DNA from: Bacillota bacterium
Lineage (GTDB): Bacteria > Sysuimicrobiota > Sysuimicrobiia > Sysuimicrobiales > Segetimicrobiaceae
Direction: 5' to 3'
Assembly (NCBI GenBank): GCA_021324255.1
Contig: JAJPJL010000126.1
Location: 29,855 to 93,854, forward strand
Length of the DNA stretch: 64,000 nt
The notes beneath the pieces are model-generated. The model was not told the origin of the DNA and did no database searches. It saw only the letters and a list, made by a program, of their open reading frames with translations. Of the stretch, positions 53,495 through 56,764 are shown one piece after another; the stretch's first letter is position 1, and every line of letters starts with the position of its first letter. The position numbers were made by a program, and so were the translations under genes.

Positions 53495-53956
53495 TCACGA
53501 AGGGTTGGGGCGCGGCCACCACCGCCGCACGCGACGGCAATACGCTTCGTACTCGGGACCGAACGTCCGCCGGAGCGTGGGCTCCTCGTACCACACGACG
53601 AAGAGATGGGCCGCGAGCAAGAAGAGGGCGGCGTATCCCACAAGCCGCAGCGATCCGTACAAGAGCGCCGCGCCCGCCAGCGCCGCGCCCGCACCGAGGT
53701 AGATCGGATTTCGCACGAAGCGGTACGGGCCCCGAGTGACCAGGCGCCGGGGCGGATCGAACGGCGCAGGAGTCCCCTTGCCGAGCCACGCAAAGGTCAG
53801 CGCGCACCACAGGGCGAGCGCGACCCCGGCGGCCCCGAGGAGCATCCCCGCGATCTGCCGGGCTCCCATGGACGCGGGGAGATGGGCGCGCCCGTAGAAG
53901 AGGACGAGCGCGCCGAGCAGCGCCGCGTACGTCAACGCGCGACCAACCGCAAACAT
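53495..53956 (-). CDS. Isoprenylcysteine carboxyl / phospholipid methyltransferase family membrane protein
   Basis: Four transmembrane helices and the C-terminal ICMT/PEMT motif (RLVTRGPYRFVRNPIYLGA...EEP.L...FG.EY..Y). Confidence 0.7.
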   Translation of the reverse strand: MFAVGRALTYAALLGALVLFYGRAHLPASMGARQIAGMLLGAAGVALALWCALTFAWLGKGTPAPFDPPRRLVTRGPYRFVRNPIYLGAGAALAGAALLYGSLRLVGYAALFLLAAHLFVVWYEEPTLRRTFGPEYEAYCRRVRRWWPRPNPS

Positions 53957-54537
53957 GTCCGCCCCGCCTGCACGTCGATACGAGTACCGGGGCCCCCGGT
54001 TCGCCACGCGGCATGAAGAAACCCTCAGTCACTGGCCTGCATGTTCGCCGATCCCCGTATTAGGTACTCATAGTCGGACCCTATAAGGCGGCTCCTCACA
54101 GCGTCCCGGAGCGCCGTGTGCGGGACCGCCGCGGCCCGGCGCACAAGTTGATCCGCTCAAGCCGCCGTCGCGCCTCACGCCTTGGCCGGCGGGGCGGCTG
54201 TCTGGGCCTGACCCAGCGTGGCGAACAGGCCGGCACGCTTCTTCTCTCGTAGACTCCGGGTCCCAGGCTGGAACCGTAAGGGGGTCACCTCGACAACAGA
54301 AGGGAGGCGGCGTTCGCTCGTCCGGCCCCAGCGTCGCGTTGCTCCGCGCGTCGCTTCGCTCCGTTCACGACCACCGATCGCGGCGTTCACCATGGAGCGA
54401 AACGAGTGTTCATGATGAGCGAAACCAGCATCCCGTGCGAGGCGGACTGCTTGCTCCCGAAATTGCGGCGGATACTAACGGTGTTTGCCTGGGAGCTATT
54501 GGGCCTCAGCAAGACCTAGGACCATCGCGCTCCTGAG

Positions 54538-54583
54538 TTGACAGATAATTGCACGCATGATATTGTTTTACCGGGCGGTAAAA
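54538..54583 (+). promoter_or_regulatory. Island promoter TTGACA-17-TATTGT immediately followed by a perfect inverted repeat TTTTACCG-gg-CGGTAAAA (candidate autoregulatory operator)
   Basis: -35 at 54538-54543, -10 at 54561-54566 and the IR at 54566-54583, 32 nt upstream of the ATG at 54615. Confidence 0.55.
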
Positions 54584-54614
54584 TATATCAATGTAGACAA
54601 CTTTCCAAGAGACC

Positions 54615-55676
54615 ATGACAACACCAACCATCCAACAAGTGGAGAAGCTTCTCCCGTCTCTCATCCCGGGATTCAGAATCTCAAGCATGAGAAGGCAACC
54701 AAGACCCAAGTCTGGGGACATTCGACCGGACTTCCTCCTAAAGGGATACCTGAAGGGCCGCCCGGTGACCTTCGCAGTCGAAGTGAAGAGCGTTGGCGAA
54801 CCTCGTTATGTTCGACAAGCAATGAACGAGCTACAGGCGTTCAAACGGGAGAATCGAGATGTCTATCCACTCCTCATCGTACCGTACATGAGCCCGAACG
54901 CCCAGCTCTTGGCAAAGGCGGAAGGCATTGGTTTCTTGGACTTGGCCGGAAATGCGTGGCTGGACCTGGAACAAGCGTACGTCGAACGAATCGGACGGCA
55001 TCCAGAACGCGTCCCCGCACGACCGATTCGTCGAGTGTTTGCTCCTGTTTCTTCGCGAGTCATCCGCGCTCTTCTGGAGTCCCCGAAACAGACGTGGACA
55101 TTAAGCACGTTGGCTGCCGAAGCTACCGTCGGCTTGCCCCTAGCGTCCAGGGTGGTGCGGAGGCTTGCCGAGGATCGCTGGATATCCTTGAAACGCGTTG
55201 GCCGGAGAGCAGAAATCAATATTACAACGCCAGGCGAACTGCTCGAAGCGTGGGCGAGCGAATATTCTTTCCTCACAACGAACTCGGTCTCACGGTTGTA
55301 CAGCTTTGAGTCAGACCCAGGACGCCTGATGAAACAAATAGCGTCGGTTGCCAACCGAGAGCGTAAGAAGTATGCGTTTACTCTGGCGGCTGGTGCGACC
55401 CTGATAGCTCCGGCAGCGAGGATCTCGGATGTCGCACTCTACATTGAAGGAGATCTTGAGGCTTGGAAGAGCTTGCTTGACCTGAGGCCAGCGGAGACCG
55501 GTGGCAACGTCTTGATAGCTGAGCCTTTCGATGCGGGTGTCTTCTATCGAATTCAGACGCCAGCAGACCAGTTTTGGGTCGTTGGCAACGTTCAACTGTA
55601 TCTGGACCTCGTTTCGTGGAAAGGCAGAGGTGAGGAACAGGCGGAGGCGTTGCGCCGACAGAAACTAGGTTATTAA
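54615..55676 (+). CDS. AbiEi-like putative antitoxin/regulator with an unusual architecture: N-terminal PD-(D/E)xK nuclease-like motif, central winged-helix, C-terminal domain
   Basis: RPDFLL-x17-EVK matches the PD-x(n)-(D/E)-x-K motif, and IVPYMSPNAQLLAKAEGIGFLD resembles the Mrr-cat C-terminal strand. Residues about 150-205 look like a winged helix. The stop lies 3 nt before the AbiEii gene. About 50% GC. Confidence 0.55.
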   Translation: MTTPTIQQVEKLLPSLIPGFRISSMRRQPRPKSGDIRPDFLLKGYLKGRPVTFAVEVKSVGEPRYVRQAMNELQAFKRENRDVYPLLIVPYMSPNAQLLAKAEGIGFLDLAGNAWLDLEQAYVERIGRHPERVPARPIRRVFAPVSSRVIRALLESPKQTWTLSTLAAEATVGLPLASRVVRRLAEDRWISLKRVGRRAEINITTPGELLEAWASEYSFLTTNSVSRLYSFESDPGRLMKQIASVANRERKKYAFTLAAGATLIAPAARISDVALYIEGDLEAWKSLLDLRPAETGGNVLIAEPFDAGVFYRIQTPADQFWVVGNVQLYLDLVSWKGRGEEQAEALRRQKLGY

Positions 55677-55679
55677 CAC

Positions 55680-56540
55680 ATGGCCACCGACCGCGGCATT
55701 GGCCATTTTGCATCCGACACCGTCGGCGCATCTCAGTCGGTACTTCTCGAACTGGCGACAACGTTGAGAGTTTATAGAGACGCACTCGTTCTTGTGGGAG
55801 GGTGGGTCCCCTACTTTCTCATCCGAAAGTACTGGGGATCCCGCGCGCATCACGTGGGATCAATTGACATCGACTTGGCCGTGGACTTTCGACAGGTCTC
55901 CGAGGCAGAATATCGAGGCATCGTAGCGCTTCTTCGAGAGCGCGGCTACAGCCCGAAGGAAGACGTTAGCATGCCGTTTGAATTCATCCGCGCGGTACCC
56001 AGGGACGGCGGGCTTGGGCCAGTCGAAATTGCTGTTGACTTCTTATCCGGGGAATATGGCGGAACCGGCCGAGGTCATCGACATCAGCGAGCCGGCGATT
56101 TGCTCGCGCGAAAAGCGCGCGGCTGCGATGTCGTCTTCGACCACCGGTGGCTTCTCAGTCTCGAGGGTCGTCTGCCACTTGGTGCAGAGGCCCAGTGCGA
56201 CTTGTGGGTTGCTGACCTGGTCGGTTGTTTGACCACGAAAGGCATCGCAATGGCGTCGCGCTACAAGGAGAAAGACGCTTACGACATCTATATGGTCATA
56301 TCCAATCACCCACGGGGCCCGAGAGGTGCAGCGGAGGAAGTCGCGCCCAGCCTGAGCCATCCGCTCGTGACGGAGGGACTTGCTGGAATCCGCCAGCACT
56401 TTGCTTCTCCACAGAGAACTGGTCCCCAGTGGGTTGCGGACTTCTACGGGGAGACCGCGGGCGAAGCAAGAGATCGCCGAGTGACCGACGCCTACATGCG
56501 CGTTTCGGAGTTTCTGCGTGTTCTGGGTTTGGACAAGTAG
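55680..56540 (+). CDS. Nucleotidyltransferase of the AbiEii/AbiGii (DUF1814) toxin family
   Basis: Motif I LVLVGGWVPYF...GSIDIDLAV and motif III KGIAMASRYKEKDAYDIYMVI. About 286 aa. Confidence 0.8.
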   Translation: MATDRGIGHFASDTVGASQSVLLELATTLRVYRDALVLVGGWVPYFLIRKYWGSRAHHVGSIDIDLAVDFRQVSEAEYRGIVALLRERGYSPKEDVSMPFEFIRAVPRDGGLGPVEIAVDFLSGEYGGTGRGHRHQRAGDLLARKARGCDVVFDHRWLLSLEGRLPLGAEAQCDLWVADLVGCLTTKGIAMASRYKEKDAYDIYMVISNHPRGPRGAAEEVAPSLSHPLVTEGLAGIRQHFASPQRTGPQWVADFYGETAGEARDRRVTDAYMRVSEFLRVLGLDK

Positions 56541-56630
56541 AAACCAGCCTCCAGATTGGTTCGGGTCGGTTTCGGGGAGCGAGGATAGCCTCTTCTACAG
56601 CGAGAAACCCCCGGAACCCCCCTACGTTCA

Positions 56631-56660
56631 ATTGACAGTGAAAACGATGGGCGGCTATAC
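56631..56660 (+). promoter_or_regulatory. suf operon promoter TTGACA-18-TATACT
   Basis: Hexamers at 56631-56636 and 56655-56660, about 105 nt upstream of the sufC start. Confidence 0.5.
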
Positions 56661-56699
56661 TGAATCATGACTAAGTTAGTCGACAATATCAGCTTCGCG

Positions 56700-56715
56700 T
56701 CGCGGACGTGTCCGC
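56700..56715 (+). promoter_or_regulatory. Inverted repeat CGCGGAC-gt-GTCCGCG between the suf promoter and sufC (candidate operator for an Fe-S regulator)
   Basis: Perfect 7-bp arms read from the sequence. Confidence 0.35.
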
Positions 56716-56764
56716 GCGAGCGCGCCGCCGCGCGGCGGCGCGAGACGCCGGGACGGAGGGGTGA

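Follow-up and report, generated by a model that had tools for sequence, protein, structure and literature searches.

A predicted promoter-operator for autoregulation of a two-gene AbiE-like module with a COG4861/PF09952 regulator

The segment from 54538 to 54601 of the 64-kb stretch of DNA analysed here (hereafter the window, meaning that stretch at its full length) is probably the promoter-operator of a two-gene module, and the site at which the antitoxin of that module would repress its own expression. We put the probability of this reading at roughly 0.8, a figure that applies jointly to its second part, namely that the module was horizontally acquired and pairs a PF09952/COG4861 regulator-antitoxin with a DUF1814 nucleotidyltransferase acting as its toxin. 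A previous interpretation made from the letters of the window alone (the sequence-only reading) had proposed a promoter with the autoregulatory site of an AbiE-like module in this place. Comparison with related loci supports that proposal: the predicted operator keeps its position, its motif is enriched about 440-fold around the start codons of the family, its inner and outer half-sites agree with one another, and its variants track the recognition helix of the regulator encoded downstream.

Promoter, palindrome and genes in the window

The promoter can be read directly in the sequence. Its -35 hexamer on the plus strand is TTGACA (54538-54543), a 6/6 match that was also returned by a promoter scan, and a spacer of 17 nt (54544-54560) separates it from TATTGT (54561-54566), which a TG at 54558-54559 extends to the -10 element TG-n-TATTGT (54558-54566). 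With this TG extension, TTGACA-17-TATTGT scores 10/12 against a sigma-70-type consensus, which may not be that of the host, and the hexamers are spaced within the 16-18 nt range of such promoters. Four promoter-like sites occur in 53900-56900, as against 0.7±0.8 in shuffled sequence. Another promoter-like sequence, TTGACA-18-TATACT (11/12), lies at 56632-56661, between the toxin gene and two ORFs (56765-57601 and 57757-59166) that we take, judging from their translations, to resemble sufC and sufB.

The promoter runs directly into an inverted repeat at 54566-54583, the predicted inner operator, which we write as TTTTACC(G) / GG / (C)GGTAAAA and whose two halves we call H2 and H3. An inverted-repeat scan gives 8-nt arms that are 100% complementary, TTTTACCG on the left (54566-54573) and CGGTAAAA on the right (54576-54583), with 2 nt (GG, 54574-54575) between them, and the centre of symmetry falls between 54574 and 54575. 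Direct inspection bears out the earlier claims that TTGACA-17-TATTGT is followed by an inverted repeat and that this repeat overlaps the -10 element; the overlap amounts to one T at 54566, which is both the last base of the -10 and the first of the palindrome. The description of the repeat as a perfect 18-bp palindrome holds for the 8-bp arms but not for the central GG, which is asymmetric and leaves 16 of 18 positions symmetric. Similarly, the contrast drawn between an AT-rich palindrome and GC-rich host DNA is real but not peculiar to the palindrome, since low GC characterises the two-gene module throughout (0.48-0.64, compared with 0.63-0.76 in the flanks).

Perfect repeats with 8-bp arms and spacers of 0-4 nt number 27 in the window and 22.4±6.1 in Markov shuffles; chance expectation is about 0.08 such repeats for the 582-bp intergenic region and 0.013 for its 175-bp low-GC part. 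At the scale of the window such a repeat is therefore no commoner than chance, and its significance must come from context and conservation. We dropped palindrome statistics as an argument in their own right, the count being within the range of the shuffles. The strict form of the family motif described below, TTTYASC-N4-5-GSTRAAA, has exactly one match in the 64-kb window, at 54566, and the palindrome fits TTTYASC-N4-GSTRAAA at 14/14 positions in a register identical to that of the family. Two direct-repeat pairs with a spacing of 22 nt, TCGCTCCGTTCAC/TCGCGGCGTTCAC and GAGCGAAACGAG/GAGCGAAACCAG, are present in the GC-rich, host-side intergenic DNA at 54340-54430. The pairs are partly inverted with respect to each other, and a scan of 53800-56900 against Rfam (E up to 1) gave no match to them.

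The first gene of the module (54615-55676, plus strand) lies 48 nt downstream of the promoter-palindrome region and encodes a 353-aa protein, the putative regulator and antitoxin. It matches PF09952 (AbiEi_2) with 33.5 bits against a cut-off of 21 over residues 203-349, so that the 143-residue Pfam model spans only the C-terminal part of the protein. Alignment with full-length homologues supports both the ATG at 54615 and conservation over the entire length; among the best 120 of 224 database proteins, most are about 345 aa long and 116 contain PF09952. Three nucleotides separate its stop codon from the second gene (55680-56540, plus strand), whose 286-aa product is a DUF1814/AbiEii-type nucleotidyltransferase and putative toxin. 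The PF08843 score of this protein barely exceeds the cut-off (23.2 bits against 22.5), and its translation contains the nucleotidyltransferase motif GG...DIDL. In 58 of 82 related loci the gene immediately following on the same strand encodes a DUF1814 homologue. NCBIfam and PADLOC offered no informative family for either protein.

A sequence search of the PDB with the family profile found no relative, so the structural comparison rests on an AF2 model (pLDDT 87.7 overall and above 90 in the winged helix). The model divides the protein into a PD-(D/E)xK-like N-terminal domain (approximately residues 1-125), a winged helix (approximately 147-203) and the AbiEi_2 domain (203-349). The winged helix is built from helices at 147-155 and 163-170, a predicted recognition helix at 174-186 and a beta wing at 190-203, and in Foldseek it resembles MarR/ArsR-type repressors (MepR, OhrR, SmtB and others); MarR_2 scored E = 0.14 in the Pfam scan and so fell short of the cut-off. 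The N-terminal domain, encoded by 54615-54990, has the fold alpha-beta-beta-beta-alpha-beta, and its best PDB matches in Foldseek are the PD-(D/E)xK nucleases EndoMS/NucS. In its pattern P-D(39)...E(56)-x-K(58), D39 is invariant and K58 nearly so, and E56 is replaced in some members. The structures 6Y8Q and 1ZEL are absent both from the PDB profile search and from the 50 Foldseek matches listed.

Conservation of the predicted operator and its half-sites

The closest relatives of the window locus, L001-L003, encode proteins 74-84% identical to its regulator and have unrelated genomic contexts upstream. DNA similarity to the window starts 2-3 nt upstream of the -35 hexamer, and from this combination it follows that the presumed mobile unit is promoter, operator and both genes together. 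The contigs of these relatives stop inside the toxin gene, so the comparison covers the low-GC module up to that point, short of its right-hand border. Conservation within the control region of these relatives falls into three blocks, separated by linkers that vary among the four loci: [T/A]GACAGATA[A/G]TTGC over the -35 and the first outer half-site (H1), TG-n-TAT[T/G]GT-TTTACCG..CGGT[A/T]AA over the -10 and the palindrome, and TA[G/T]A[G][A/G]CAAC[T/C]TTC over the second outer half-site (H4). The -10 element reads TGGTATGGT or TGGTATTGT in L001-L003, and the palindrome is kept as TTTTACCGTACGGTTAAA, with a fully symmetric core, ACCGTACGGT, and one arm mismatch.

A profile-guided scan of one genome per species added 80 more distant loci, with proteins of 30-45% identity, from many bacterial phyla and some archaea. 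Upstream regions were anchored on the best proximal match to TTTYASC-N3-6-GSTRAAA, and 81 loci had at least 90 nt of upstream sequence (the window, L001-L003 and 77 distant loci). The palindrome reaches at least 12/14 in 68 of these 81 and 14/14 in 36. Its centre usually lies 29-31 nt before the ATG, as against 40 nt in the window, whose leader exceeds the usual family length by 10-15 nt. The consensus of 43 non-redundant promoters with a gap of 4, compiled with the window clade left out, reads Ttgac-N5-TTTcAct-N6-TA-N3-TTTCAcCG. up to the centre of the palindrome and ACGgTGAAA-N11-agTGAAA beyond it. The window aligns with it column for column at the -35, at the 'TA' of the -10 and at the palindrome, and in the window as in the family 31 nt separate the end of the -35 from the palindrome centre. 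The strict motif has 46 matches in the 11.7 kb that make up positions -110 to +40 of the loci and 4 in 446 kb elsewhere, an enrichment of approximately 440-fold. Of these four, three fall between -111 and -118, inside a second operator unit that some loci carry upstream.

This second unit, again a palindrome followed after 11 nt by a half-site, stands upstream of the -35 at about -95 to -118 from the start codon in L024, L025, L035, L038, L044, L056, L057, L073 and L085-L088, so that the promoter of these relatives is bracketed by two operator units. The corresponding part of the window (54300-54537) contains only weak half-sites (5-6/7), none of them in the family register. The same sites recur, often in two tandem units, in four homologues (28-32% identity) carried on plasmids of the cultured Proteobacteria Polymorphum, Pantoea, Bosea and Sphingobium. 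The archaeal loci L012, L013 and L018 (Bathyarchaeota, Altiarchaeota) keep TTTCACT and a palindrome like TTTCACCGA-ACGGTATA, and here the palindrome stands behind an AT-rich, TATA-like stretch with no TTGACA. On this sequence evidence the operator seems to have survived a switch from one promoter type to another.

The predicted operator is larger than the palindrome, comprising four half-sites family-wide, of which the two outer ones are degenerate in the window. The general layout is a -35 hexamer, H1 within the spacer, a -10 that overlaps the palindrome, and H4 18 bp further on, just before the start codon, which gives an array of about 54 bp from promoter spacer to start codon. Family H1 sites read TTTCAC[TC] or TTTTACC and H4 sites [AG]GTGAAA or GGTAAAA (right-hand columns 21-27), and perfect TTTYAN cores occur at the 18-bp offset in 41/58 cases for H1 and 42/58 for H4, compared with 5/116 at control offsets. 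The candidate H1 of the window is TTGCACG (54549-54555, plus strand), a 5/7 match at an offset of 17 bp and hence 1 nt nearer the centre; the candidate H4, AGACAAC (54595-54601, in reverse orientation), matches at 4/7 in the family register. Both candidates lie in sequence that the four-member window clade conserves, GATA[AG]TTGC in the H1 block and TAGACAACTTTCC in the H4 block, with a variable stretch of 10-11 nt between H3 and H4. The outer sites of this clade are symmetric and conserved (AGTTGC...GCAACT in L003), but diverged from the family consensus.

Co-variation within and between the half-sites, counted with no correction for shared ancestry, argues that they are read by the protein encoded downstream. 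At position 4, inner and outer sites both have T or both have C in 89 cases and differ in 4, and in the rare variants TTTCCCC (L023) and TTTTGCC (L034) the inner sites have changed along with the outer ones; such concerted change argues for one reader at all four sites. The sites also vary with the predicted recognition helix, for which we used window residues 173-184. Asn179 (window numbering) accompanies TTTCA[G/A]C in 20/20 loci with several helix types, and arginine or lysine at 179 in a G-L-A context goes with TTTCACC, neither association being corrected for shared ancestry. Helices of the types SLRTxHLVxNAL and NIRR and the window-clade helix GLPLASRVVRRL go with TTTTACC, again with no correction for phylogeny. 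The G or A at inner position 6 of the Asn179 group is not mirrored at the outer sites, which stay TTTCAC, so the recognition code is not a simple one.

A different line of evidence comes from 11 Rokubacteria/Methylomirabilota loci with no AbiEii gene detectable downstream (L036, L037, L039, L043, L046, L053, L055, L058, L060, L062 and L066). These orphan regulators keep the promoter-operator in the form TTGACA / TTTCACT / TTTCAGCGCACGCTGAAA / AGTGAAA, from which it is likely that the regulator itself is the binder. In the two examined more closely, L036 and L060, a small unassigned ORF and then a recG-like helicase gene come after the regulator.

Proposed mechanism and rival explanations

According to our model, RNA polymerase would use TTGACA-17-TGnTATTGT and start transcription near 54572-54575, 6-9 nt after 54566 and inside the palindrome, and the resulting leader, about 40 nt long, would not include the left arm. 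We infer that the MarR-like winged helix of the 353-aa product makes the contact with DNA, and that the protein most probably binds as a dimer whose two recognition helices each take one TTTTACC half-site. With 11 bp between their centres, the inner half-sites fall in successive major grooves and face the same side of the double helix. Both the final -10 base and the predicted start point lie within the palindrome, so its occupancy would exclude polymerase or block formation of the open complex, and the outcome would be negative autoregulation of both genes of a bicistronic operon. The outer half-sites found across the family could take up additional protomers, tighten repression and perhaps bend or wrap the DNA. 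In the window and L001-L003 these sites have drifted (TTGCAC / AGACAAC), and there most of the control probably falls to the inner palindrome.

Operators of type II toxin-antitoxin systems are often bound best by the toxin-antitoxin complex, and this favours the idea that the site is occupied here by such a complex, with conditional cooperativity, or else by the toxin or a host factor, and not by the regulator alone. We consider this unlikely. Orphan regulators without a toxin gene retain the full promoter-operator, half-site variants follow the recognition helix of the regulator, and the toxin of S. agalactiae has no effect on autoregulation (bioRxiv 10.64898/2026.01.19.700257). A host-specific factor is excluded by the motif travelling with the gene across phyla, archaea and plasmids. 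If the regulator is the binder, it might nevertheless activate the promoter or play a dual role, or its N-terminal domain might recognise or cleave the conserved CCG..CGG centre. This family of ideas draws on the C-G / A-C-G centre columns, which are conserved beyond the TTTCAC cores, and on the PD-(D/E)xK-like fold with its invariant D39 and nearly invariant K58. We rate it somewhat lower still, as coverage of the -10 and +1 of a near-consensus promoter is classic repressor geometry, and the replacement of E56 of the putative E-x-K in some members speaks against cleavage.

A role for the palindrome in RNA, as a leader hairpin with an attenuating or stabilising function or in terminating transcription that arrives from upstream, is in our view very improbable. 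If fully transcribed, the region would fold to -14.1 kcal/mol, but 10 of 200 shuffled sequences fold as well (z = -1.86), and the overlap of the left arm with the -10 means that this arm is missing from a transcript of this promoter. The palindrome lacks a T-run, was not called as a terminator and has no plus-strand gene reading into it, and base pairing would leave both the fixed register of the outer half-sites and their co-variation with the recognition helix unexplained. No known RNA element was detected in 53800-56900 (Rfam, E up to 1) and no tRNA in the whole window (ARAGORN), so that a tRNA integration site does not account for the region. Finally, a chance palindrome beside a real or fortuitous promoter might be entertained on the grounds that the number of repeats with 8-bp arms in the window (27) is in the range of the shuffles (22±6); conservation of sequence and position in 68/81 loci, with the enrichment of about 440-fold, effectively refutes it.

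Relation to known systems and wider significance

Autorepression through inverted repeats that overlap the promoter has been described for the COG5340 AbiEi and for Rv2827c (PMC3985639, PMC7319586), and AbiEi-type antitoxins in general were invoked as the precedent in the sequence-only reading. The precedent stands for the COG5340 class, but the window gene belongs elsewhere. Only PF09952 among the AbiEi models matched it, with no COG5340-type AbiEi in a Pfam scan at E up to 1, and PF09952 is equated with COG4861 in a table of PMC7251935. On sequence grounds the putative antitoxin encoded at 54615-55676 is of the COG4861 class, other than the studied COG5340 class. COG4861 and COG5340 share no sequence identity (PMC3985639), and the precedent therefore applies by analogy and not by membership. 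Of the features that define classical AbiE (type IV/VII) systems, in which a COG5340 AbiEi is paired with a COG2253 AbiEii, the module has the DUF1814 nucleotidyltransferase and lacks an antitoxin of the COG5340 type with its N-terminal winged helix. A third feature, an antitoxin that binds inverted repeats in its own promoter and represses it, is predicted for the module on strong comparative evidence.

The AbiEi of S. agalactiae, a COG5340 protein in contrast to the window regulator, which matches PF09952 only, comes from a similarly organised two-gene operon in which a winged-helix antitoxin precedes a DUF1814 nucleotidyltransferase (PMC3985639). Inverted repeats in its promoter, PabiE, are bound by AbiEi and mediate negative autoregulation, as we predict for the window. 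PabiE contains two 23-bp repeats with an 11-bp perfect core, 3 bp apart and occupied by two monomers, and binding is cooperative and bends the DNA (Dy et al. 2014, PMC3985639; Hampton et al. 2018, cited in PMC7319586). The family described here has, unlike PabiE, half-sites of 7 bp, with the inner pair 11 bp apart from centre to centre and the outer sites at 18 bp. The promoter of M. tuberculosis Rv2827c (MenA3) has four repeats that are bound simultaneously (PMC7319586) and in this resembles the four-site layout of the family. Rv2827c is also a COG5340 protein, and its repeats form two tandem pairs of 23-bp inverted repeats with 13-bp gaps inside the pairs, spread over about 130 bp, whereas the window family has a nested inverted array (two forward and two reverse sites) of about 54 bp. 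A further difference is that some loci of the family duplicate the palindrome-plus-half-site unit upstream of the -35.

Rv0837c/MenA2 of M. tuberculosis would belong to the class of the window regulator through the equivalence of PF09952 and COG4861 (PMC7450476, PMC3985639, PMC7251935), and regulators of this type lie upstream of, and are larger than, the DUF1814 toxin, just as in the window. MarR/ArsR-type repressors have in common with the window protein the fold of its central domain and a short palindrome over the -10; unlike them, the window regulator has additional N- and C-terminal domains and its predicted operator has auxiliary outer half-sites. We found no operator or DNA-binding study for COG4861, PF09952 or MenA2 in the literature searched, and a 2026 preprint mentions COG4861 only as associated transcriptional regulators (10.64898/2026.01.19.700257).

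The window itself probably contains an ordinary horizontally acquired toxin-antitoxin or abortive-infection-like module with a self-contained control region. A self-repression site of the antitoxin is the expected kind of switch for such a module, and it is one for which we found no description in the COG4861/PF09952 branch. Autorepression by AbiEi-type antitoxins has so far been demonstrated only for the COG5340 class, and for the equally widespread COG4861/PF09952 proteins the only description is 'putative transcriptional regulators'. Taken with some 80 related loci, the window provides this branch with a testable predicted operator, defined by a half-site consensus, a spacing and a four-site layout, and with a candidate specificity residue in the recognition helix, at position 179, where the window protein has Arg. 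A more speculative extension, to which we attach little credence, would treat the three-domain PF09952/COG4861 proteins as a class with one operator 'code' and with the nuclease-like domain as a second module for DNA recognition or sensing. Were this true, TTTCAnC half-sites in a nested four-site array would constitute a single code from archaea to proteobacterial plasmids, and the nuclease-like domain would sense the CCG..CGG centre, or foreign or damaged DNA, and couple that signal to derepression and release of the toxin. The toxin-less copies fixed beside recG in Rokubacteria/Methylomirabilota would then be domesticated regulators.

In public records of these genes the start codon is often misplaced. 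A public contig of 3,015 bp (L084, GCA_037025105.1), identical to window positions 53706-56720 with 0 mismatches, is annotated with a regulator of 303 aa that starts at an internal GTG, and with a minus-strand ORF of 71 aa laid over the promoter. Among the four proteobacterial plasmid homologues, the RefSeq start codon falls within the predicted operator palindrome in three (L085-L087) and upstream of it in Sphingobium. Misplaced starts of this kind, whether they truncate the protein or fall within the palindrome, hide the promoter. The predicted operator can be recognised in cultured, tractable hosts, including Pantoea, relatives of Agrobacterium/Rhizobium, and Sphingobium plasmids.
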